From: a virus
Direction: 5' to 3' (one strand)
Virus record (IMG/VR): IMGVR_UViG_3300025645_000061
Location: 4,429-68,428 of that record
DNA length: 64,000 nt
Shown: piece after piece, positions 7,555 to 64,000 of the stretch
Position numbering within the stretch: the stretch's first letter is position 1
Layout of the letters: the number at the start of each line of letters is the position of its first letter
The notes under the pieces: model-generated
Database searches by the model: none
What the model saw: only the letters and a program-made list of their open reading frames with translations
What the model was told of the DNA's origin: nothing
Translations under genes and position numbers: made by a program

Positions 7555-8985
7555 ATGGCTAAGAAGCAATATGGCCCTGCATCACTAAAGCAGGAAATGT
7601 ATGTAAACTCTAATGCAACTATCACCGTTTTTGGTGGTGCTGCTGGTAGTGGCAAATCTTATATGGGTCTTATGGACTTACTTAAGTGGGTACACATGCC
7701 ATCATTTCGTGGTGTTGTTTTCAGACGTACTACTCCCCAACTTAAAGGTGTTGGTGGTATGTGGGATACAGCCCAAGAGATGTATACAGAGTTATTTCCT
7801 AAATTACAGGTAGCATCCAAAGATAGTAAAATAACGTTTCCATCTAAAGCTCAGATTATGATGAAACACATGGAACACGTTAAAGATAAATTTAACATCC
7901 AAGGATGGCAGATATCAGAAGCACTTGTAGATGAAGCTTGTCAGTTTGAAGAAGAACAGATTATGTATATCATATCTCGCCTTCGTAACACTACTGAAAA
8001 AGACTTTAAATCTCACCTTAAAATGACTTGCAACCCCGATTACGATTCTTTCTTAAGAGTATGGCTAGAGAAAGCACAATACTTAGACAAAGAGGGTTTT
8101 CCTATTGAAGAACGTTGTGGGAAGTTAGTTTATTGTGGGCAGGTATCAGGTGGTATGGAGTTTGAACAATCCCTAGAAGATTGGGAAGAAAAATACCCAA
8201 AATCTACACCTTTAACCTTTTGCTTTATTAATGCTACTTGCAAAGATAACCCTATCCTTCTTGAAATGGAACCAGATTATCTTTCTAAACTAGAAAACTT
8301 ACCTAGAGTAGAATGTGATAGGTTGTTACACGGAAACTGGTATGCTCGTGAAGAAGCATCTGGTTACTGGAAAAGAGAGTGGTGTGGAGACCCCATATCG
8401 CTATACCAAATCCCACAAGGGCTTAGAACAGTTCGTAGTTGGGATATGGCAGCTACACTACCTTCAGAGATATACCCTGACCCCGATTTTACAGTTGGTA
8501 TTAAAGGTTGTGTTGATGGGGAAGGTACAGTGTACATAATGGACGTTAAGAGGTTCAGAGAAAGACCAGCCGGAGTTATTGATAAAGTATTAGGCTCTGG
8601 TTTAACCGATGGACAGGATTGCACTATAACAATCCCGAAAGACCCCGGTGCTGCTGGCAAGGCTGCTGCTGATAATGTAACTTCTAAATGCTTTGAAGCT
8701 GGATTTACATGCAGACAGAAACAAACAAAAACAGGTAAAGATAAAAGATTTGAACCTGTAGCTGCATTAGCAGAAAACGGAATGATTAAAATAGTTAAAG
8801 GGGATTGGAATAAAATATTTCATGATGAACTTGAGGCTTTTGGATCAGGAAGAGGACACGATGATATCGTTGATGCTATAGCCGATTTAGTGCATGAACT
8901 ATGTCAAAGAACAGCAATACCAAGCTTCTCTTGTCCAGATGGACTTTTACAGACAAACCCATTTAATAACCCCTTGAGGATTTAA
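7555..8985 (+). CDS. terL: Terminase large subunit
   Basis: Walker A GGAAGSGKS, Walker B LVDE, TCNP coupling motif, nuclease SWDMA and HDDIVDA. Confidence 0.95.
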   Translation: MAKKQYGPASLKQEMYVNSNATITVFGGAAGSGKSYMGLMDLLKWVHMPSFRGVVFRRTTPQLKGVGGMWDTAQEMYTELFPKLQVASKDSKITFPSKAQIMMKHMEHVKDKFNIQGWQISEALVDEACQFEEEQIMYIISRLRNTTEKDFKSHLKMTCNPDYDSFLRVWLEKAQYLDKEGFPIEERCGKLVYCGQVSGGMEFEQSLEDWEEKYPKSTPLTFCFINATCKDNPILLEMEPDYLSKLENLPRVECDRLLHGNWYAREEASGYWKREWCGDPISLYQIPQGLRTVRSWDMAATLPSEIYPDPDFTVGIKGCVDGEGTVYIMDVKRFRERPAGVIDKVLGSGLTDGQDCTITIPKDPGAAGKAAADNVTSKCFEAGFTCRQKQTKTGKDKRFEPVAALAENGMIKIVKGDWNKIFHDELEAFGSGRGHDDIVDAIADLVHELCQRTAIPSFSCPDGLLQTNPFNNPLRI

Positions 8986-8988
8986 ACT

Positions 8989-10443
8989 TTGAGTAACAAC
9001 CCAACAGATGTAAAGCTCCTCAGTGAGGCTGCTAGGGTGGTTATGCCTGAACTAGGAAATTCCGGTTTAGCTAATCCTCTAGGACTTATTAGGGATGACT
9101 TTTATAGAGAGCTTGAATACCCTTTAGCTGCAAAAACCTTTAAGAATATGACATACCACCCTACTGTATCTTCAGCTATTACAGTTATTGAAGACACTAT
9201 TCGTAGAGTTAATTGGTCAGTTGAAGCTCCTAAAGATGCCACTCCTGAAATGAAAGTACGAACAAAGTATATTGAGTCTTGTATGCACGACATGGATAGG
9301 ACTTGGGCAGAATATATTCAAGAGTTCTTATCTATACTTATTTACGGTTTCTCCGTTAATGAGAAAGTCTGGAAAAGGCGTACAAAAAAGAATAACAAGT
9401 CTAGACATGATGATGGTTTAATCGGTTGGAAAAGATTACCTTCTAGAAGCCAAGCATCTATCAAACGTTGGGTTTGGGATGACGAAGGTAGAGACCTCAT
9501 TGGTGTTATCCAAGACCTTTCACAAGTTAAAGGTGGTAACCTTAGATATAACGTTGATGGAACCTTGATAGGTATTCCTAGATCAAAATTCTTACACTTT
9601 AGACACAATGCACAACTAGATAATCCAGAAGGAAATTCTCCACTTAAACAAGTGTTTATACCTTGGAGTTATCTAACTACTATTGAGGAATATGAAGCAG
9701 TTGGAATTAGCCGTGACATGAACGGTATGCCAATGATTAAGCTTCCCCCTGAATACATGGCAGCGAATGCCTCTGATGATAAGAAAGCTGTTTTTGAGTA
9801 TATGAAACAAGTTATCAGAAACATTAATGCTAACGAACAATCTGGATTAGTATTTCCTAAGTTTGTAGACCCTGATACTAAAGCTGATGCTTTCGAGTTT
9901 TCACTAGTTGGTACTCAAGGTAATAAGAACTACGACACTGACGCAATCATTCGTAGGTACGAACAGAAGATTCTTATGACCTTCTTAGCTGATGTACTTC
10001 TTTTAGGTCATAGTGCTGTAGGCTCTAATGCGTTAGCTTCTGAAAAGTCAAGTCTTTTAGCTGTTAAAGTTGAAGCTATCTTAGCTCAAATTGTAGACAT
10101 TATTAACACAGACTTGATACCACATACCTTCCGTATGAACGGTTGGGATGACACTATCACACCTAAACTTACTTTTGACAGTTTTGAAGATACTTCTTTA
10201 GATGAAGTCGGTAAATTGGTTCAACGTGCAGTATCTGTTGGAGCTATGTCTATTGACGAACCACTGTCTAACTACCTGAGAGACCTTATAGGGGCTTCTG
10301 ACGCTGATCCTTCAGCACCAGTGCTAATGCCCTCTGACTCTATTAGTAGTGCAGGAGAGGGTTTTAAAACGGCTGGAGAGGGTACTGCAACTTCTCCCGG
10401 TGGAAGTGATAGTTCAAGTAACAATAATGATAACGCGAGTTAA
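8989..10443 (+). CDS. Portal protein
   Basis: Follows terL; DNPEGNSPL and YGFSVNEKVW motifs typical of DUF935-type portals. Confidence 0.9.
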   Translation: MSNNPTDVKLLSEAARVVMPELGNSGLANPLGLIRDDFYRELEYPLAAKTFKNMTYHPTVSSAITVIEDTIRRVNWSVEAPKDATPEMKVRTKYIESCMHDMDRTWAEYIQEFLSILIYGFSVNEKVWKRRTKKNNKSRHDDGLIGWKRLPSRSQASIKRWVWDDEGRDLIGVIQDLSQVKGGNLRYNVDGTLIGIPRSKFLHFRHNAQLDNPEGNSPLKQVFIPWSYLTTIEEYEAVGISRDMNGMPMIKLPPEYMAANASDDKKAVFEYMKQVIRNINANEQSGLVFPKFVDPDTKADAFEFSLVGTQGNKNYDTDAIIRRYEQKILMTFLADVLLLGHSAVGSNALASEKSSLLAVKVEAILAQIVDIINTDLIPHTFRMNGWDDTITPKLTFDSFEDTSLDEVGKLVQRAVSVGAMSIDEPLSNYLRDLIGASDADPSAPVLMPSDSISSAGEGFKTAGEGTATSPGGSDSSSNNNDNAS

Positions 10444-17861: not shown

Positions 17862-19517
17862 ATGTCTAAGAGTGTACAAATAGCCAGCGTCTTTACCGCT
17901 ATTGGCTTCAAAGTTAATAAGAAAGATTTAGACAAGCTTCAAAAACAATTAGTCGACCTCAAAAAACAACTAACTAAGTTACAAAGTGTTGCGAAGCTTA
18001 ATATAAACCCCAACACACAAGGACTGCAATCAGCTCGTAGAGAGCTTATGGGCATTAACAGAGAACTAGCTAAGATAAAAACTAAAGCGATCAGGGTTAA
18101 TGTTAACCGTGGTACTACAGGTAGCGGCGTTACAGGTAGTAGAGGATCAACTGCTAGAGGTGTAGCTGGTGGTGCTTTTGCGGGTAGTGCTTTATCAGAT
18201 GCAGGGCAGTTTAGTAGGGGGGCTGGGGCGGTAGGTATAGCCGCTTTTGCAGGAGCTGGTATATTCCAAACTACAGCTAAGATTGATGCTATTAAAAACG
18301 CCTTGGGTGCTGCCGCTGGTGGTGCTGAAGAAGGTGCAAAGCAATTTAAATTTCTAGAAGATACATCTGAAAGAATTGGTATTAACTTAATTGATAATGC
18401 TAGATCCTATCAAAACTTCTTAGCTGCTTCTAACGCTGTAGGTTTTAGTACAGACAATGCTCAGAAATCTTTTACCGCTACTGCAAGTGCAGCTAGAGTA
18501 TTAGGTTTGAGTGCTGCGGATACTAATGGTGCTATGAGAGCGATGACTCAGATTCTGTCTAAAGGTACAGTACAGGCTGAAGAATTGAGAGGCCAGTTAG
18601 GTGAGAGAGTTCCCGGTGCTGTAGGTATGATGGCGAAAGCTGTTGCTGAGATGCAAGGGAAAACTGAAGTTACCGTACAAGAACTAGGTAAGATGTTAGA
18701 ACAAGGGGAAATCATCTCTAAAGATGTTATGCCTTTCTTCTCTAAACAATTACTTAAAATGGCAACTGCCCACGGAGCATTAGAACATGCTCAAAAGACT
18801 CCACTAGCTAACTTAGAAAGAATGAGGAATTCTTTTGTTAAGTTTCAGGATGCTATTGGTAGATCAAACTTTGTTTTTGAATTATCTTTATTGTTTCAAC
18901 AACTATCAACTGGCATGAAAGAATCTACTAAAGAGGGTACTATTCTTGGGGCTGCGCTGGGTATTCTGATGAATGTGTTCCAAGCAATAGCTGGGATACT
19001 AACAGCATTTCCGGGTTGGCTTAAAGCCCTCTTTGTGATTTGGGGGGCGTTGATGATACCCCTGTTAATTCCTTTATTGGCTATAGCCGCAGTATTACTT
19101 TTAATTGATGACTTTATTAGTCACATGCAAGGTAAAGGTGGTTTCTTTACTGATCTATTAGGTGAGGATGGGTTCTTTAAATTCATTGATAGATTTAAGT
19201 CTGAAATGGAAGGTATTGCTGATGCTTTTTGGGATAGGTGGATAGAAAATCTTACTTGGATTCCAAGAAAAGGAGCTAAGATAGGTCTAGCCGCAATTAG
19301 TGCAATAGCCAACCCTAAACAAGCTTATGATAAAGTCCAAGAATTCAGAGCTAATAGGGAGGCAACTGAAAGGGGTCTTACTTTATTAGTACCTGAGCAA
19401 GGCCCACCAGAGGACACTAGAACAATTTTCCCTGTTGGTGGAAGCCCTGTTGAAGTAATCATCTCCACAACAGAAGAATTGTCTGCTACCGTTAAAAAAT
19501 ATGATAGAGGAGGTTAG
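17862..19517 (+). CDS. Tape measure protein
   Basis: QILSKGTVQAEELRGQLGERVPGA tape-measure domain; TM segment. Confidence 0.92.
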   Translation: MSKSVQIASVFTAIGFKVNKKDLDKLQKQLVDLKKQLTKLQSVAKLNINPNTQGLQSARRELMGINRELAKIKTKAIRVNVNRGTTGSGVTGSRGSTARGVAGGAFAGSALSDAGQFSRGAGAVGIAAFAGAGIFQTTAKIDAIKNALGAAAGGAEEGAKQFKFLEDTSERIGINLIDNARSYQNFLAASNAVGFSTDNAQKSFTATASAARVLGLSAADTNGAMRAMTQILSKGTVQAEELRGQLGERVPGAVGMMAKAVAEMQGKTEVTVQELGKMLEQGEIISKDVMPFFSKQLLKMATAHGALEHAQKTPLANLERMRNSFVKFQDAIGRSNFVFELSLLFQQLSTGMKESTKEGTILGAALGILMNVFQAIAGILTAFPGWLKALFVIWGALMIPLLIPLLAIAAVLLLIDDFISHMQGKGGFFTDLLGEDGFFKFIDRFKSEMEGIADAFWDRWIENLTWIPRKGAKIGLAAISAIANPKQAYDKVQEFRANREATERGLTLLVPEQGPPEDTRTIFPVGGSPVEVIISTTEELSATVKKYDRGG

Positions 19518-54619: not shown

Positions 54620-55039
54620 ATGACTAGAATTAATTTAATTGATCCAGAAGAACTTCACGACCAGCATCTTGTAGCGGAATATCGTGAGTTATTCATGGTG
54701 GGTTCTTCTTTACAAAGATCGCTTAAATCACCAAATTGGAACTTGGCAAAAATTCCAAAATCCTTCACGCTCAATAAAGGTCACGTTTCTTTCTTTTACG
54801 ACAAAGGTCGATATCTGTCTAAGAGGTATAAACTCTTGATTAAGGAGATGAAAAATAGAGGCATGAATCCCGATCCAGATAGAGTATTTAAACGTGAACA
54901 ATGGCCCGATGAATTTTATCTAGATTGGGTTGCGTCCGACCACGATAAAGATATCATTCGTGAGAGGATACAAGAGAAAATTGATATGAAACCTAACTGG
55001 TATAAAAAAACGGTGGTTACGAGTATGGCTACAATTTAA
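54620..55039 (+). CDS. denV: Pyrimidine dimer DNA glycosylase (T4 endonuclease V)
   Basis: MTRINL, DQHLVAEYREL and GHVSFFYDK motifs. Confidence 0.93.
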   Translation: MTRINLIDPEELHDQHLVAEYRELFMVGSSLQRSLKSPNWNLAKIPKSFTLNKGHVSFFYDKGRYLSKRYKLLIKEMKNRGMNPDPDRVFKREQWPDEFYLDWVASDHDKDIIRERIQEKIDMKPNWYKKTVVTSMATI

Positions 55040-55053
55040 TGGAGTACCTTGTA

Positions 55054-55950
55054 ATGGACAGTAAGATAGCTTTTGTATTTCCCGGTCAAGGTTCACAGAA
55101 GATAGGGATGCTATCAGCGTTAGCAGAGAAGTTTGATATAGTAACTTCTACCTTTGCAGATGCGTCAGATGTTTTAGGGTATGACCTTTGGGATTTAGCT
55201 CAAAACGGTACTCAAGAAGACATTACTAAGACTGAGTATACTCAACCCTTACTACTTACAGTTAGCGTAGTAATGTGGAGAGTTTGGATTCAAGAGGGAG
55301 GTACAAAACCCGCTTTCATGTTAGGTCATAGTATGGGAGAATGGTCTGCTCTAGTTTGTGCCGGTGTGGTTGAATTTAAGGATGCTGTTCGTCTAGTGCG
55401 TAATCGTGGTGCTTATATGCAGGAAATTGGGGAAGGTGCTATGGCTGCTGTTATTGGTTTAGACAGTGATACAGTTAAGTCTATTTGTGCTGATGCTTGC
55501 CAAGGTGAAGAAGTTACTGCTGTAAATTTTAATTCTCCCGGTCAGGTAGTTATTGCAGGAAAATATTTAGCTGTAGAAAGGGCTATTAAGGGTTGTAAAG
55601 AAGCTGGAGCTAAACGTATTTTTCATTTACCCGTAAGTGCTCCATTTCATACAAACCTTATGCAACCAGTAGCAGATAGATTAACAGTGGACATTATGAG
55701 TACAAAGTTTTATAATCCAGAAATACCAGTTGTACACAATGTCAACGCCCAAACTGAGGATGACCCTGAACGCATCAAACAGTTGATGATAGAACAAATA
55801 TGTAGTCCTGTTCTTTGGGTTGACTGTGTGAAGACATTAACTTATAATGGTGTTACCTCCATAGTTGAATGTGGTGCTGGAAGGGTACTTAGTAGGCTTT
55901 GTAAACGTATTGATAGTACGTTAGAGATATACCAAATTAAGGGAGTATAG
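55054..55950 (+). CDS. fabD: Malonyl-CoA:ACP transacylase
   Basis: FVFPGQGSQ, TQP, GHSMGE, NFNSPGQVVIAG, VSAPFH and VECGAG motifs. Confidence 0.95.
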   Translation: MDSKIAFVFPGQGSQKIGMLSALAEKFDIVTSTFADASDVLGYDLWDLAQNGTQEDITKTEYTQPLLLTVSVVMWRVWIQEGGTKPAFMLGHSMGEWSALVCAGVVEFKDAVRLVRNRGAYMQEIGEGAMAAVIGLDSDTVKSICADACQGEEVTAVNFNSPGQVVIAGKYLAVERAIKGCKEAGAKRIFHLPVSAPFHTNLMQPVADRLTVDIMSTKFYNPEIPVVHNVNAQTEDDPERIKQLMIEQICSPVLWVDCVKTLTYNGVTSIVECGAGRVLSRLCKRIDSTLEIYQIKGV

Positions 55951-57992: not shown

Positions 57993-58208
57993 ATGGCTAC
58001 AGTATGCCCTATAAAGAAAGAAGATGGCTCTGCAAACCTAGATTACACTGTAACAGATGATTACTTGTTATCAGAGCACAGTTATGGAGCTAATTATAAA
58101 AACACTTGTATTGTAAAGTGTGCTAGGCTTGAGGACGCTGTTAATTTTCTAAAAGTGTTGTATACTCAACACGAGAATGTTATTACTTTAAACATTAAAG
58201 AGGGGTAA
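57993..58208 (+). CDS. Hypothetical protein
   Basis: GAGGA RBS. Confidence 0.55.
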   Translation: MATVCPIKKEDGSANLDYTVTDDYLLSEHSYGANYKNTCIVKCARLEDAVNFLKVLYTQHENVITLNIKEG

Positions 58209-58212
58209 TATT

Positions 58213-58419
58213 ATGGAGACAACTATATATTGGGCACAACAGCTTATAAGCCTTCAGGAGGACTTTAAACATAAGAATTATGATACCTCTTTGGGGTTTG
58301 CTGAGGTCTGTTGTAGGGCAGCTCTAGGGGCTGCTAAAGGTGGTCATGAAAGTATATCTGAAGAAATATTAGACCTTAGGGATTTAGCTTTGAAAGAACA
58401 CCAAGTAAGGAGTATATAG
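58213..58419 (+). CDS. Hypothetical protein
   Basis: GAGGGG RBS. Confidence 0.55.
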   Translation: METTIYWAQQLISLQEDFKHKNYDTSLGFAEVCCRAALGAAKGGHESISEEILDLRDLALKEHQVRSI

Positions 58420-58577
58420 TTATGATTATAGAATGTCATTGGTGCGAAAGACCTATTCTTCCTACGGTGGAGGCTTGATTAGTAAAGGGACAATTACAGC
58501 GTTAAAACGTTTGCAACCCTAAAGGAATGGAAAAGCTTGTTATAGGTATGTGTGGCATCTTGAGGAAATTTGATATG

Positions 58578-58787
58578 GGACTAAAACGAATTTTAGTTTA
58601 GGACTAAAACGAATTTTAGTTTAGGACTAAAACGAATTTTAGTTTAGGACTAAAACGAATTTTAGTTTAGGACCAAATCGAATTTTAGTTTAGGACCAAA
58701 TCGAATTTTAGTTTAGGACCAAATCGAATTTTAGTTTAGGACCAAATCGAATTTTAGTTTAGGACCAAATCGAATTTTAGTTTAGGA
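58578..58787. repeat. Tandem 23-bp array II (9 units), same family as array I
   Basis: GGACTAAAACGAATTTTAGTTTA x4 then GGACCAAATCGAATTTTAGTTTA x5. Confidence 0.97.
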
Positions 58788-58817
58788 GGGCTTACCCTGA
58801 CAAACTTAAAAACTGTA

Positions 58818-58834
58818 TGCACCAAAACAGTGCG
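58818..58834. promoter_or_regulatory. NtrC-type enhancer box
   Basis: TGCACCAAAACAGTGCG vs consensus TGCACY-N5-GGTGCA. Confidence 0.5.
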
Positions 58835-58836
58835 TA

Positions 58837-58855
58837 GCTAATGATAATGATTATC
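58837..58855. promoter_or_regulatory. Fur box
   Basis: GCTAATGATAATGATTATC, 17/19 match to GATAATGATAATCATTATC. Confidence 0.7.
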
Positions 58856-58861
58856 ACTCGC

Positions 58862-58897
58862 TGTGGATAACTTGTGGCAAGGATAACCTGTGGATAA
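58862..58897 (-). promoter_or_regulatory. Two perfect DnaA boxes plus degenerate copies between them
   Basis: TGTGGATAA (= TTATCCACA) at 58862-58870 and 58889-58897. Confidence 0.75.
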
Positions 58898-58938
58898 CTC
58901 ATTTGTCAAGTGTATAGAAAAATAAAGTTATACCCTTG

Positions 58939-58957
58939 AATGATAATCAATCGCATT
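58939..58957. promoter_or_regulatory. Second Fur-like box
   Basis: AATGATAATCAATCGCATT, 16/19 match to AATGATAATCATTATCATT. Confidence 0.45.
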
Positions 58958-59205
58958 ACCCAAAAGTCGCCCGCTCTCCCTCCGGGGTCGTTCGATAACT
59001 TATTATAACTTATTAAAAAACAAAAAACAACCCTTTATTTCATTTATTTTTATTTTATTTCAATAATACACTAAAAAACCCTGTAAGGCCCAGAATCCCT
59101 TTCTAAGCTATTTAAGCCTTAAGTGATACAATCGCATTACCCATACCCGTGGAATGGCTTAGATCGCATTCTATGAGGTCAAATATACCGAATATTTGTT
59201 AAAGC

Positions 59206-59222
59206 TTGGCATGATAAGTGCA
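59206..59222 (+). promoter_or_regulatory. sigma54 -24/-12 element
   Basis: TTGGCATGATAAGTGCA (GG-N10-GC). Confidence 0.6.
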
Positions 59223-59373
59223 TATGGTCAAGAGTGGGTCGTTAATCCATTATATCAAAAAATTAAACAAAAAACAACCCATAAATAAAAATAAATTAAA
59301 TTATATAAAAGCTTGACGTTTTCTATAGAGTTGATATAATGACTACACACACAAACAAAAGAGAGCGTTTAAA

Positions 59374-59556
59374 ATGGCAAACTGGCATACCGAAACAATG
59401 GCAAAAATGAAAAACCTTTCTATTGAATCATTATATTACATTTATGATGATGCAAACAAAGCTGCCGAAATAGGCGAGAAAATAGGGAATCCAAAATCAG
59501 GACAATACCGGGATGAAGCCCATTATGCCGCAATGGAAATAAAGGCCCGGAAATAA
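59374..59556 (+). CDS. Pre-early small protein
   Basis: Own promoter and GAGAG RBS. Confidence 0.7.
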   Translation: MANWHTETMAKMKNLSIESLYYIYDDANKAAEIGEKIGNPKSGQYRDEAHYAAMEIKARK

Positions 59557-59629
59557 ACCTAAAATAAACCTTGCAAAGGATTGTGAGGTTGATACAATGA
59601 CTACACACACACAAAAGAGAGCATTTAAA

Positions 59630-59836
59630 ATGTTAATTTTCAACTATCCGAGTAAAAAAGTTTTAAAAGAAAATGTCGGTCAACCTCTTGACTTTATAGA
59701 AACTAGCATTTTTGGAAATGAATACTTGACAGACGGATTTTTAACTGGTGCGAATCGCCCGCATATAACTGGAATAGGTCGTGAGTTTTTTGCGAATGTT
59801 ACAATGGAAAACGGGCTAATTAAATCGGTAAAATAA
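59630..59836 (+). CDS. Pre-early small protein (FNYPSKKVLKE...ETSIFGNEY)
   Basis: Own promoter; start corrected to the ATG after the RBS. Confidence 0.7.
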   Translation: MLIFNYPSKKVLKENVGQPLDFIETSIFGNEYLTDGFLTGANRPHITGIGREFFANVTMENGLIKSVK

Positions 59837-59909
59837 ACCTAAAATAAACCTTGCAAAGGATTGTGAGGTTGATATAATGACTACACACACACAAAAGAGA
59901 GCGTTTAAA

Positions 59910-60104
59910 ATGAAAATGAGAGCCACACACCAAAAAACCGGGCAAGTTTTATACTTTCAAAAAGAAAACAGTGAACTTGCTTTTCCAGCTTTTCGTAAAT
60001 TTCTAGAGTCTAATTTTCCAGAAATTGATTCTGTAAAAAGCTTGACAATGGCAAACAATTTTAGAGTCTATTCTGTAGTTAAAAATTATGGTCGGAGCTG
60101 GTAA
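59910..60104 (+). CDS. Pre-early small protein
   Basis: Own promoter; start corrected. Confidence 0.65.
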   Translation: MKMRATHQKTGQVLYFQKENSELAFPAFRKFLESNFPEIDSVKSLTMANNFRVYSVVKNYGRSW

Positions 60105-60105
60105 A

Positions 60106-60303
60106 ATGAAAAAGCACTTGACAATGACAGGTATCAATGCTGGAAAAACTTATTGCTCAGAAGAGAGAAATTCTCTTGACAGGTATTGCCATTTACCGTA
60201 TGTAGCAAAACCTTTGATTTGGGCTAAAATAAATATAACTTGCAAAGGTTGTATTGATATGTTAGAAAGCACCTATGAAGAAGAACAGCTTGAATTGTTT
60301 TAA
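60106..60303 (+). CDS. Small Zn-binding protein (H/C...CH...CKGC)
   Basis: GGAG RBS; Cys/His pattern. Confidence 0.6.
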   Translation: MKKHLTMTGINAGKTYCSEERNSLDRYCHLPYVAKPLIWAKINITCKGCIDMLESTYEEEQLELF

Positions 60304-60411
60304 ATAAACCTAAAATAAACCTTGCAAAGGATTGTGAGGGTTGCTATAATGACTACACACAAAGCGAATCGAAACGGTTCGTTTCAATACACACAAAAGA
60401 GAGTAAAAAAA

Positions 60412-60708
60412 ATGTTAACTTCTACCAGTTTACAACACAAAAAAGTTAAATTAAATATTATTCGCGCTATGCATAAATCAATGAATCAAAACGTAGCGCA
60501 TGTAAGAAACAAAAAAGGCGAGGCATTTATTGCGGTACGATACGACCACACAAACGATTCTTTTGAGTTTACAAATAGAGCTGGTAAAAATTTAGCTAAT
60601 ATGATTGGGACAGCTTATATTATCAAAAGCTATGACGAAAAAATAGCAAGTGTTTTTTATCCAGAATACAAACCTTGCCGATTGAAAAGAACATATGACA
60701 TTTTCTAA
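60412..60708 (+). CDS. Pre-early hypothetical protein
   Basis: Own promoter; start corrected. Confidence 0.65.
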   Translation: MLTSTSLQHKKVKLNIIRAMHKSMNQNVAHVRNKKGEAFIAVRYDHTNDSFEFTNRAGKNLANMIGTAYIIKSYDEKIASVFYPEYKPCRLKRTYDIF

Positions 60709-60786
60709 AATAAACTAAAAAAGCCCTTGCAATAATTGTAAGGGTTGCTATAATGACTACACACAAACCCAAAAGAGAATTTAAAA

Positions 60787-60918
60787 ATGGAAATTGTAAA
60801 AATTATTAAAAGCGTAAAAACCTTAAAACCGAAAATGACTACCACCGATAAAAAAGCCATTAAGGAATTTAGAAATATCCGAAAAAATAGGCATAATAAA
60901 TGGTTGACAATAGACTAA
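60787..60918 (+). CDS. Small basic protein (43 aa), paralog of 56931..57080
   Basis: Own promoter; KKAIKEFRNIRKNRHNKWLTID. Confidence 0.65.
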   Translation: MEIVKIIKSVKTLKPKMTTTDKKAIKEFRNIRKNRHNKWLTID

Positions 60919-60973
60919 ATTTTATTGTAAAATATAAGTAACAAATTAAATTTTTCTTAAAAAGGTAAAAATT

Positions 60974-61135
60974 ATGAAATACTTTTTGTATGTAATTCTA
61001 GCAAGTGTAATATTCGCCTCTTTGATCGGCTGTGAAAATGGTGGAAGAGTCTCACATACTTACAAAGTGTGCCATATCCCACCGGGAGAAAAACTTGACG
61101 TTTGCAATTACCACGTTTACGAAGAAATACTTTAA
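60974..61135 (+). CDS. Small lipoprotein (53 aa)
   Basis: MKYFLYVILASVIFASLIG-C lipobox; AAGGT RBS; below the ORF track cutoff. Confidence 0.7.
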   Translation: MKYFLYVILASVIFASLIGCENGGRVSHTYKVCHIPPGEKLDVCNYHVYEEIL

Positions 61136-61249
61136 ACTAAAAATAAACTAAAAATAAACCTTGCAATAATTGTAAGGGTTGCTATAATGACTACACACAA
61201 AGCGAATCGAAACGGTTCGTTTCAATACACACAAAAGAGAGCGTTTAAA

Positions 61250-61999
61250 ATGTCAAAATCTCAAAATGTCAAACCTATTAAAATTTCAGGTTGTTATAGT
61301 GGAGCGGGTAAAAAATTCAATAAATTCGCTATAAGCTTAAAAGGTAATTCAAAAACAAATTGTCCTACCACCACAAGCGAAAAAGACACTTGCCCGGATA
61401 CTTGCCCATTAAAAGACTCGGGTTGTTATGCGAAATATAGCTTTTTGGGTAATTACTGGAAAAAATTATCTAATGGCGAGGTGAAAAACTCATTTGATTT
61501 TGCGGGTTTAATTAGTGCTATTCGCAAACTTCCAAAGGGCGCAATCTGGCGACATAATCAAGCCGGTGATTTGGTACACAATAGCGGCATAATCGACGTT
61601 AAAAGCCTGACATCTATTGTTAAAGCAAACAAAGGAAAAAGAGGTTTCACTTATACGCACCATTTAGCAACTCCGGAAAACGCTCTGACGGTCGATCTAA
61701 GCAACGAAAAAGGTTTTACAGTCAATTGGTCCAGTAATAACTTAGAAGAGGCTGACGACCTGTTTAATCGCGAAATAGGGCCAGTGGTAACACTATTACC
61801 TGTTGGGGCTGATAAAGTAACAATGACACCACTAGGGAATAAGGTTGTAAAATGTCCGGCTGATAAAGCTAAAAATATCACCTGTGCTAGTTGTCAATTA
61901 TGCGCGATACCTGACAGGGATTATATTATCGGTTTTGAAGCCCACGGATCAGCAAAAAAGAAAGTGAGTTTAATTGCAGCAAAGGAAATAACTGTATAA
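61250..61999 (+). CDS. Cys-rich putative Fe-S protein (gp88-like / radical-SAM-like)
   Basis: TCPDTCP...GCYA, RHNQAGD, YTH and CPA...TCASCQLC...HG motifs. Confidence 0.7.
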   Translation: MSKSQNVKPIKISGCYSGAGKKFNKFAISLKGNSKTNCPTTTSEKDTCPDTCPLKDSGCYAKYSFLGNYWKKLSNGEVKNSFDFAGLISAIRKLPKGAIWRHNQAGDLVHNSGIIDVKSLTSIVKANKGKRGFTYTHHLATPENALTVDLSNEKGFTVNWSSNNLEEADDLFNREIGPVVTLLPVGADKVTMTPLGNKVVKCPADKAKNITCASCQLCAIPDRDYIIGFEAHGSAKKKVSLIAAKEITV

Positions 62000-62086
62000 C
62001 GTTATATAGAACGTTTTAAGGGGTTTTGTGGTTAACTGATACAATCACAAAGCCCCTTGGGTTTTAACAGCTTAGAAGCAAAATTT

Positions 62087-62108
62087 AGCCTCTTAAATGG
62101 GGCTTTTT
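62087..62108 (+). terminator. Intrinsic terminator
   Basis: AGCCTC-ttaaat-GGGGCT plus T-tract. Confidence 0.65.
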
Positions 62109-62264
62109 GGTGTCTGTGTTCCCCACTTTGGTAGGTATGTTTAGGTTCTAGGGGGTTAGCCATTTCAAGCCCCAATTGCTTTCTAAGCCTATCCAAATTT
62201 TCCCCTTATGATTCTACCTATTACCCTACAAAGTGCTTTAAATCGCATTCTACGAGGTCTAAAG

Positions 62265-62637
62265 TTGGCATGATTCTTGCAACACACAAACCCTTATAAG
62301 GCCCAAATAACCCTGCAAATATCGTGCCAAGTTTTGTGAGTTTCTATGGAAGATTATGTGAGTTTCTATGGAAGATTATGTGAGTTTCTATGCAAATATC
62401 GTGCCAAGTTTTTATAAGGGTTTTATGGGGGTTTTTGGCACACTTATTGCATATGCAAATTCCATGCCAAGTTTTTATAAGGGTTTTATGGGGGTTTTTG
62501 GCACACTTATTGCATATGCAAATTCCATGCCAAGTTTTTATAAGGGTTTTTGGCACACTTATTGCATATGCAAATTCCATGCCAAGTTTTTATAAGGGTT
62601 TTTGGCACACTTATTGCATATGCAAATTCCATGCCAA
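62265..62637. repeat. Tandem array of 11 consensus sigma54 -24/-12 elements
   Basis: + sites at 62265, 62435, 62498, 62550, 62602; - sites at 62314, 62391, 62454, 62517, 62569, 62621; all TTGGCA(C/T)(A/G)-N4-TTGCA. Confidence 0.85.
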
Positions 62638-62846
62638 GTCAAATCTTATCCAGCTCCGGTGTCTTGAATTTCGGTCTCTTACGTTCCCGCTGATGTGTCT
62701 ATTATAACCCCATTCAATAACAAAAAACAACCCCTTATATGAAATAAATAAAAATAAATAAATGCAAATAAATGCAAATAAACCCTTGCAAAGCTTTTAA
62801 AAGTTGTTATAATGACTATACACACAAACAAAGAGAGTATAAGAAA

Positions 62847-63065
62847 ATGACTAAAATCGAGATGCGTTTAAATGGTTACATTTACACTCAGGCCGCTATA
62901 TTACGAGAAAGTGCAGGAGACGTTAATTTACAGTCTCTTACAGAATTGACGGCATCCTATATTGCCTACATGCGTAAAGCCGGCGCTACAGTAGAAGAGG
63001 TCAATCGGTCATGGGTAAGAACCTGCGATATGTTCAACGTTCAAGGATACGGAAACAAGGGATAA
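62847..63065 (+). CDS. Pre-early small protein
   Basis: Own promoter; start corrected to the ATG after GAGAG. Confidence 0.65.
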   Translation: MTKIEMRLNGYIYTQAAILRESAGDVNLQSLTELTASYIAYMRKAGATVEEVNRSWVRTCDMFNVQGYGNKG

Positions 63066-63090
63066 AATAAACTAAAAATAAACCTTGACA

Positions 63091-63145
63091 AAGCCCCTTG
63101 ATTGGTATGGAATCGAAAGGTTCCTTTCTGATAGGGGGCTTTTTT
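63091..63145 (+). terminator. Long hairpin terminator with nested GAAA stem-loop
   Basis: AAGCCCC...GGAATC-GAAA-GGTTCC...GGGGCTTTTTT. Confidence 0.7.
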
Positions 63146-63358
63146 ATTGTCTAGTGAATGGAACATTCGTTGCCATTGTTGTTAATAGTAGCTTTATAGA
63201 GGCCGTCAATCCATTGTATCACAATTAGGAAGACCCTTACAACCCCTTATATGAAATAAATAAAAATAAATAAATGCAAATAAATGCAAATAAACCCTTG
63301 CAAAGCTTTTAAAAGTTGCTATAATGACTACACACACACAGAAACGAGAGTTAAGAAA

Positions 63359-63568
63359 ATGGACAACCTAGAAAAACTCAACAAATGTAAAGCTTCTCTT
63401 GAGAGTCACATTGAACGCGGTAACAGCAAGAATCAGGTGAGAAGCTGGGTATTAATCGACAAGTACCACGCCCTGAAAGAAACCGCACAAGAGGAACAGA
63501 CATGGGTAGGTTGGTGTGTTGAGCGGAACTTTTCAACCTACCATGATGCGTACGACTATTGGGCTTAA
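63359..63568 (+). CDS. Pre-early small protein
   Basis: Own promoter; start corrected. Confidence 0.65.
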   Translation: MDNLEKLNKCKASLESHIERGNSKNQVRSWVLIDKYHALKETAQEEQTWVGWCVERNFSTYHDAYDYWA

Positions 63569-63588
63569 CACACCCAAGGCCATAATAC

Positions 63589-63610
63589 AACCCCTTGATT
63601 GGGGTTTTTT
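63589..63610 (+). terminator. Intrinsic terminator
   Basis: AACCCC-ttgatt-GGGGTT plus T-tract. Confidence 0.7.
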
Positions 63611-63937
63611 ATTGTCTGTTGTTAATGGTAGCTTTATAGAGGCCGTCAATCCATTGTATCACAATTAGGAAGACCCAACAACCCCTTATATGAAATAAAT
63701 AAAAATAATTATATGTTGACATTGTGTTGAGGATGTGGTTATAACTTATCATGAATCTACAGCTATTTGTATCTTCTAGATTCGTTTCTAAGCCCTTACA
63801 AATAAACCCTTATAGGTTTATGCAGTTTACTTTGGAATGCCTTAGAAAGTGTTACAGGGTGTTGTGGAGGGGGTGTGGTAGGGGTGCTAGATATTTTAAA
63901 ATCATGGAAAGGCTCCGGGGGGTATATGGGGTTGGTT

Positions 63938-64000
63938 AAACACATAGGATATAGAGAATGCTTTGTAGAAACACATAGGATATAGAGAATGCTTTGTAGA
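63938..64000. repeat. 31-bp tandem repeat running off the window edge
   Basis: AAACACATAGGATATAGAGAATGCTTTGTAG at 63938 and 63969. Confidence 0.9.

Follow-up and report, generated by a model that had tools for sequence, protein, structure and literature searches.

Face-to-face pairs of sigma-54-type sites in a gene-free array of a tailed phage: candidate docking sites for the host sigma-54 holoenzyme

Background

To our knowledge, no bacterial sigma factor other than sigma-54 (RpoN) forms stable complexes with DNA without going on to transcribe, and its role in phage infection is almost unstudied. The sigma-54 holoenzyme binds its sites as a stable closed complex, and the start of transcription needs an AAA+ activator. 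Enhancer-dependent promoters of this class, such as glnAp2 and pspA, are single sites 20-100 bp ahead of a gene, with activator sites about 100-150 bp upstream, and are marked by a GG doublet at -24 and a GC doublet at -12 exactly 10 bp apart within the consensus YTGGCACGr-N3-TTGCW, an extended form that is said to go back to Barrios et al. 1999. Here we analyse a stretch of 64,000 bp of viral DNA (called the window throughout; bases 4429-68428 of the IMG/VR record IMGVR_UViG_3300025645_000061) in which 11 sites with these doublets, this spacing and the extended consensus are packed into 372 bp. Unlike bacterial sigma-54 promoters, eight of the 11 stand in face-to-face pairs and six have no gene behind them.

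Several described systems resemble the array in part. The R sites of lambda cosB and the pac boxes of SPP1 are recognition arrays of the terminase small subunit, and these, like the iterons of replication origins, resemble the array in having sites of about 16 bp that recur in either orientation within DNA free of genes; the likeness to the terminase arrays extends to the dyads of other phages that lie just upstream of terminase genes. Such arrays are phage-specific in sequence, whereas the sigma-54-type rule is common to unrelated viruses of 30-65% G+C. Clusters of high-affinity sites without a regulated gene are also known from the datA locus, which titrates DnaA. Decoys, in which clustered sites lower the pool of free factor, have been described for tandem sites in yeast (PMC3322331) and for response regulators (PMC8599769). 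As far as is known, neither these decoys nor datA is directed at a sigma holoenzyme, nor does a phage deploy any of them against its host. In Escherichia coli, Bonocora et al. 2015 (PMC4591121) found orphan and intragenic sites that carry transcriptionally silent sigma-54 holoenzyme in vivo and have no apparent target gene, and raised the possibility that the orphan sites act as decoys; those 135 mapped sites are dispersed singles inside host genes and are neither tandem, nor in dyads, nor phage-borne. A full-text literature search (supplements excluded) gave no phage arrays, dyads or decoys for sigma-54, in agreement with an earlier reading of this DNA from its letters alone (the sequence-only reading), which had proposed that the array may titrate the host factor and knew of no precedent. 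A link between rpoN and resistance to phage FelixO1, through glutamine starvation and RpoS, is reported in another study (PMC8744999) and is not relevant to the array.

Results

Layout of the array

An exact scan with TGGCAYR-N4-TTGCW finds 11 sites in 62266-62636, three of them single and the others in four mirror-image dyads (Table 1), and so reproduces what the sequence-only reading had described: consensus elements in dyads and singles, with four different N4 spacers (CTTA, GAAT, ATTC and ATAT) and unit periods of 63, 52 and 52 bp. The array accounts for every exact match in the 68,428-bp record (11 of 11), and the reversed pattern, taken as a control, has none. When one mismatch is allowed the window holds 12 matches; 100 dinucleotide-preserving shuffles average 1.64, with 5 as the highest count, and none of them reaches 12. 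The dyad is a 34-bp unit, TGGCACACTTATTGCA-TA-TGCAAATTCCATGCCA, present in four copies with its halves facing each other, and one 11-bp repeat accounts for the difference between the 63-bp and the 52-bp units. Since the four units are 97-100% identical to one another, their copy number reflects recent tandem duplication, and the count of 11 sites carries the caveat that only four half-site sequences inside the window are independent.

The absence of a gene, also claimed before, holds as far as comparison with protein families reaches: the open reading frames (ORFs) that overlap the array (62390-62707 and 62368-62595 on the + strand, 62344-62580 on the - strand) are all translations of the repeat, with no hit above the Pfam cut-off and none with a PHROG E-value below 0.001. 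No meaningful Rfam match turned up in 58000-64000, neither strand of the 166 nt at the left of the array (62140-62305) has a more stable fold than its shuffles (z = +0.69 and +0.50), and a megablast search of 62000-62900 against 50,697 isolate phage records returned no match. Six of the 11 sites point away from all genes, no ORF with family support lying in that direction.

Table 1. Features of the array and its surroundings (positions of the window)
Feature	Position	Strand	Remarks
Terminase large subunit gene	7555-8985		
Mu-type portal gene	8989-10443		
Tape measure protein gene	17862-19517		
One-mismatch copy of site A, TGGCATGATAAGTGCA	59207..59222	+	In the paralogous cassette boundary; twelfth match of the window
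DUF7227 gene (Pfam)	61187-61999	+	Last gene left of the array
Intrinsic-terminator-like hairpin	62087..62104	+	Ends the upstream + gene block; stem AGCCTC...GGGGCT, then a T run
Conserved non-coding cassette-boundary module, CTTTCTAAGC ... ATCGCATTCTAYGAGGTC	62143..62265		Leads into site A
Single sigma-54-type site A, TGGCATGATTCTTGCA	62266..62281	+	
Single sigma-54-type site B1, TGGCACGATATTTGCA	62314..62329	-	Points left
22-bp tandem repeat	62335..62392		2.6 copies; derived from the left flank of site B
Single sigma-54-type site B2, TGGCACGATATTTGCA	62391..62406	-	Same as B1
Dyad 1	62436..62469		+ half TGGCACACTTATTGCA, - half TGGCATGGAATTTGCA; -12 boxes 2 bp apart (offset 18)
Dyad 2	62499..62532		63 bp after dyad 1; spacer has the additional 11-bp unit TTTTATGGGGG
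Dyad 3	62551..62584		Period 52
Dyad 4	62603..62636		Period 52
Strong sigma-70-type promoter, TTGCAA-16-TATAAT with TG	62786..62813	+	150 bp past the last dyad
Small gene driven by the 62786..62813 promoter	62847-63065	+	

Likeness of the motif to sigma-54 sites

Each of the 11 sites has its GG and GC doublets exactly 10 bp apart, within TGGCA-N6-TTGC, and this spacing is rigid well beyond the array. In 16 sequences that together make up 183 kb (the window and 15 loci), a search for TGGCA-Nk-TTGCW with k running from 2 to 11 gives 88 matches at k=6 and 0-3 at any of the other values, and reversed controls give 0-2. The less conserved positions were compared over 83 sites. Position 6, directly after TGGCA, is C in 43 and T in 40 and never A or G (the search pattern had preset it in about 26); purines occupy position 7 in 78 sites and position 8 in 65, and T occupies position 0, before TGG, in 52. 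These weakly conserved positions agree with the extended sigma-54 consensus, here YTGGCAYR-N4-TTGCW, and the box rule is obeyed by every site of the array. Over 112 distinct dyads, the N4 spacers of the two halves are complementary at 1.09 of 4 positions on average, no more than chance predicts, and selection therefore acts on a double-stranded protein-binding sequence rather than on a hairpin. By these measures of spacing, consensus and hairpin complementarity the motif behaves like a sigma-54 site, and the earlier view that the motif was selected, rather than produced by simple slippage, is borne out by the rigid box spacing and by the weak positions that follow the consensus.

Recurrence of the dyad in viruses

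The strict dyad (central TTGCATATGCAA) was found in 16 viral-contig stretches, about 13 of them distinct, with spacers that all differ, and the same pattern read backwards was found in none. Among prokaryotes (185,579 species, one genome each; 596 billion bases) there is a single match, which turns out to be a 7,682-bp inovirus-like contig that is also among the viral records (L012, the same as L025). This contig carries a gene for a Zot-family assembly ATPase, closely followed by an AT-rich island that holds one perfect dyad, and was binned into a Burkholderiaceae metagenome-assembled genome that encodes sigma-54 (rpoN). The dyad is close to virus-specific. In a relaxed form it occurs in at least 119 viral stretches, from which a set of 112 distinct dyads in 97 loci of 30-65% G+C was drawn.

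Tandem arrays recur as well. Three dyads 54 bp apart stand with two single sites in L088/L105, four dyads lie within 190 bp in L066 (59% G+C), and L038, L056 and L067 hold further examples. In these arrays the boxes persist, and it is the spacers and the inter-dyad sequence that have diverged; arrays of three or four diverged dyads in unrelated phages (L088/L105, L066 and L038) are what selection on the number of sites would be expected to give. In five other viral records the sites are likewise limited to one short region, with no matches in the controls. The offset between the halves of a pair is 18 in 106 pairs, 19 in seven, and 17, 20 and 22 in one each, a distribution partly fixed by the search pattern at 18; of the pairs outside the selection made by that pattern, six of eight have the offset of 18.

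Distances between same-strand neighbours elsewhere fall at 49-56 bp in 33 of 103 cases and at 61-67 bp in 17 of 103, so that the window's 52 and 63 bp are typical. The sequence-only reading took its periods for about six, five and five helical turns, and this gains weak support from the clusters at 52-54 and 61-67 bp in other phages; the best period is 13 bp, not 10.5. A Rayleigh test on the 103 distances gave R 0.47 at 13 bp and R 0.27 at 10.5 bp, the distances including related arrays and so not being independent, and we make no claim of phasing.

Relatives of the phage

Relatives of the DUF7227 protein were found at six loci in metagenome contigs, three of which have sites: four in L030, five in L032 and one, at the contig end, in L033. 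Of the others, L031 stops short of the array position, and the two distant loci L034 and L035 (43-45% identity) have no sites. None of six pattern matches to such relatives in viral contigs was confirmed. Scaffold L030 (89% nucleotide identity over 59001-62078) keeps site A and next to it has a different - site, after which the scaffold ends. L032, whose DUF7227 protein is 74% identical, shares the window's layout, in which small-gene cassettes give way to a non-coding hub (about 1 kb in L032), and in this hub are two dyads with four new spacers, all four halves fitting TGGCAYR-N4-TTGCW; the dyads flank three perfect DnaA boxes. GG-N10-GC is conserved in both L030 and L032 while the spacers change, which is the behaviour in relatives on which the sequence-only reading had staked its interpretation.

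The boundary module that leads into the array is 91-95% identical in L030 and L033, and site A is conserved in L030, in L033 and in the paralogous module of L030. Within the window the paralogue of the boundary module occupies 59090-59206 and, in the alignment, directly precedes the one-mismatch site at 59207; the site at this position is perfect in L030. The motif of the cassette boundary also occurs at four loci of the viral collection, none of them with sigma-54-type sites.

Gene context of the dyads in other phages

Clustering of ORFs places a terminase large subunit gene within the flank in 71 of 124 loci, and the terminases of dyad loci are mutually related (median pairwise identity 49%), so that these cases are not independent. 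A small DUF5681-type protein is common to 30 loci and often adjoins the dyad hub, and BLAST found no protein family common to all dyad loci. Where a dyad has two flanking genes, these are on the same strand in 24, divergent in nine and convergent in seven of 40 loci, according to a crude ORF caller that is noisy (45 of 97 dyads overlapped some ORF of at least 60 aa). Many short viral contigs have a dyad hub within about 1 kb of one end. The array in the window is not at a divergent junction, and the terminase large subunit gene of this record is more than 50 kb away from it, whereas recognition by a terminase (pac/cos) would lead one to expect the array next to or inside the small-subunit gene.

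As an observation on the dyad flanks, runs of six or more G (or C) occur within 250 bp on either side of dyads in 39 of 88 loci and in 4 of 88 controls taken from 1.5 kb or more away, these controls being mostly coding DNA, so that the difference may partly be one between intergenic and coding sequence. Words of the type GGGGAGGG occur in the dyad flanks of 15 loci and in none of the controls, and in L088 and L056 the G run abuts a TTGAC box.

The phage and the setting of the array

The source record, from an uncultured aquatic phage, is linear, 68,428 bp long and rated 76% complete, and its terminase large subunit, Mu-type portal and tape measure genes mark a tailed phage. The major capsid protein is about 40% identical to its counterparts in Rheinheimera, Acidithiobacillus and Limnohabitans phages, and further genes encode a primase-helicase, a family A DNA polymerase and ThyX. 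All ORFs of at least 150 aa with family support in the window are on the + strand. From about 59.3 kb onward there are small-gene cassettes, each with its own strong sigma-70-type promoter and terminator, and the array sits inside an 850-bp gene-free stretch between the terminator of the DUF7227 gene and the promoter of the next small gene. An antisense sigma-70 promoter considered at 62701-62730 was rejected: it is not in the list from the consensus scan, and its -35 box matches at only three of six positions. No turn in GC skew was found in the window.

The phage FabD (malonyl-CoA:ACP transacylase, 55039-55950) is 79% identical to proteins named Porticoccus, and another viral copy of FabD is 98% identical to it; this likeness is a likely clue to a gammaproteobacterial host. 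The best match to FabD among 400 sampled genomes is 55%, none of these genomes being of the Porticoccus lineage (the sample takes in G045, G314, G302 and G147, on which four no claim is built).

Further left, the gene-free region 58826-58960 holds an NtrC-like half-matching site (TGCACC-N5-AGTGCG), a near-perfect palindrome resembling a Fur box, and DnaA boxes, two of them perfect (58862 and 58889) and a third degenerate. The region may be an origin, or else the lineage may gather sites for a number of regulators of its host. Directly before it, at 58578-58787, a 23-bp unit with a TTTTAGT...ACTAAAA dyad is repeated in tandem in two variant blocks.

The record ends in repeats on both sides, in about 14 copies of a 9-bp tandem unit on the left (L036 1-126) and in two copies of a 31-bp unit on the right (window 63938-64000), where the assembly probably broke. 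DNA contigs from two runs skip 887 bases (60339-61227) and 951 bases (62725-63677) and join at promoter units that are repeated; gain or loss of small-gene cassettes therefore distinguishes strains in the sampled waters.

Transcription data

Metatranscriptome contigs cover small-gene stretches at 62839-63045 (in both of two RNA runs) and at 63346-63537. The Logan contigs used here show neither RNA starts nor strand, and the lack of RNA contigs over 62412-62813 and 62010-62143 is not evidence, since repeats break contigs. Summed word depth is higher over the array in two DNA runs, a measure that is not a copy number.

Reader proteins and numbers of sites

Neither the AAA+ activator domain (PF00158) nor a sigma-54 gene (PF04552) was found in any of five viral records, this one included, and no activator site was recognised in or beside the array (62105-62786), where the inspection was by eye only. 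Four bacterial genomes of 2.9-3.0 Mb from the sampled class have 8, 12, 15 and 14 exact sites, dispersed, and two of the eight in the first belong to a viral contig. With 11 gene-free exact sites per phage genome, a number comparable to the 8-15 of a bacterial genome, one phage copy roughly doubles the cell's stock of consensus sites. The earlier proposal that host sigma-54 may be titrated is plausible as arithmetic, the site load being equal to that of a whole bacterial genome. The alternative offered with it, a protein-bound brake or ratchet during DNA entry, found no support.

Discussion

The sites are probably bound by the host sigma-54 holoenzyme. A sigma-54 binder is favoured because one rule, which matches the consensus even at its weak positions, spans viruses of very different composition and gene content. 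What the bound enzyme would do is far less certain, and it is only tentatively that we suggest the array to be a set of selected docking sites that capture the holoenzyme as a decoy. The grounds for capture are that no activator is encoded, that the neighbouring genes have sigma-70 promoters and that six of the 11 sites point away from genes. Each dyad would hold one enzyme, in either direction, which would give about seven enzymes per genome copy; host sigma-54 polymerase would be kept on phage DNA in closed complexes, with a load that rises as the genome replicates, and would be drawn off the few consensus sites of the host chromosome (about 10-15), so that the sigma-54 regulon would be weakened. 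The fuller version of this scheme, a sponge in which the dyad, its two -12 boxes sharing an AT-rich core, traps the closed complex and the host sigma-54 programmes shut down during phage replication, is a slightly more tentative extension. A role of the array as a roadblock or insulator was set aside, as in E. coli intragenic sigma-54 complexes leave passing transcription unaffected (PMC4591121).

A number of results weigh against the decoy, and most of these are what one would expect if the sites were true enhancer-dependent promoters, held as poised closed complexes and fired by a host activator, or an unrecognised phage one, acting from solution. The + halves would then give the downstream small genes a second, conditional expression and the - halves a leftward non-coding or antisense RNA, with the dyad as a compact two-way promoter whose tandem copies raise output. 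The main argument for such promoters is that the dyad lies upstream of the terminase large subunit gene in 48 of the 48 non-redundant other loci that carry this gene, within 3 kb in 35 of them; dyads also stand between divergent gene blocks, where a two-way promoter makes sense, in four of 12 mapped loci (L056, L021, L060 and L067), and 48 of 78 intergenic single sites face the next gene, again by the crude ORF caller. In the window itself, a 161-nt RNA contig over 62178-62338, which takes in sites A and B1 at the left edge, was found in one of two runs (X12), and part of the array region may thus be transcribed. The NtrC-like half-matching site at 58826-58842 is about 380 bp upstream of the 59207 site, and the spacer between dyads is rich in T runs; bent T-run DNA upstream of sigma-54 promoters can replace integration host factor. 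The strict 18-bp offset sits badly with a decoy in a way of its own: a simple decoy does not need it, and it hints at a symmetric binder. Against poised promoters in turn, all five viral records lack an activator gene and inspection of the array and its borders by eye gave no activator site, every neighbouring gene already has a strong sigma-70 promoter, and, as the annotated genes of the window are all on the + strand, six of the 11 sites serve no gene; the predominance of same-strand over divergent surroundings among the 40 loci, crude as the caller is, also speaks against a two-way role. A decoy and poised promoters seem to us about equally likely, neither being more than a possibility to be held loosely, with the decoy slightly favoured here because, in addition, no gene needs the sites and their copy number was recently amplified.

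The hint of symmetry raises the question of whether a sigma factor is the binder at all. A dimeric or tetrameric protein of phage or host that recognises TKGCA pentamers one helical turn apart would make the array an operator or a set of iterons, and its likeness to sigma-54 sites a convergence. The rigid offset of the halves (106 pairs at 18, in part a product of the search) fits such a protein, as do the lack of any dyad other than that of one viral contig among 185,579 prokaryote genomes and the DUF5681-type small protein next to the hub in 30 loci; we nevertheless think it improbable, as the same 16-mer rule holds from 30 to 65% G+C, in the inovirus-like L012, in terminase-linked hubs and in this phage, while no protein family is common to all loci, many sites are single rather than in dyads, and the degenerate positions follow the sigma-54 consensus. 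Less probable still, to the point that we give it little credence, is a replication origin or a packaging or genome-end signal, at which an initiator, a terminase or priming by RNA polymerase would act on repeated inverted sites. DnaA boxes do occur near by in this lineage, between the dyads of the non-coding hub of L032 and at 58862 and 58889 in the window, many contigs have a dyad hub within about 1 kb of an end, hubs lie upstream of terminase genes, and the record itself ends in tandem repeats 1.4 kb past the array. Yet in the window 3.4 kb separate the DnaA boxes from the array, none of 13 unrelated loci has a DnaA box within 1.5 kb of the sites, the window has no turn in GC skew, contig ends at repeats are expected from assembly alone, and a single recognition sequence would not be common to unrelated initiators or terminases.

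Conclusions

New here are the contrast between viruses and prokaryotes with its reversed control, the per-genome baseline of sites, the tests of spacing and hairpin complementarity, the sites of two relatives and the position of the dyad upstream of the terminase gene. The window is a very clean case, with 11 perfect sites, no gene and the site number of a whole host-sized genome. Taken together, these features of the sequences suggest that phages probably capture or use host sigma-54 polymerase in a way not yet described. This would imply either a new tactic of host takeover, the titration of holoenzyme by DNA, or a programme of phage transcription that has so far escaped notice and depends on an activator yet to be found. 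If the sponge is real, it would affect membrane stress (Psp), RNA repair (Rtc), flagella, pili and nitrogen control, and it would be the first counter-measure against a sigma factor made of DNA rather than protein, one common to at least 119 viral-contig stretches.

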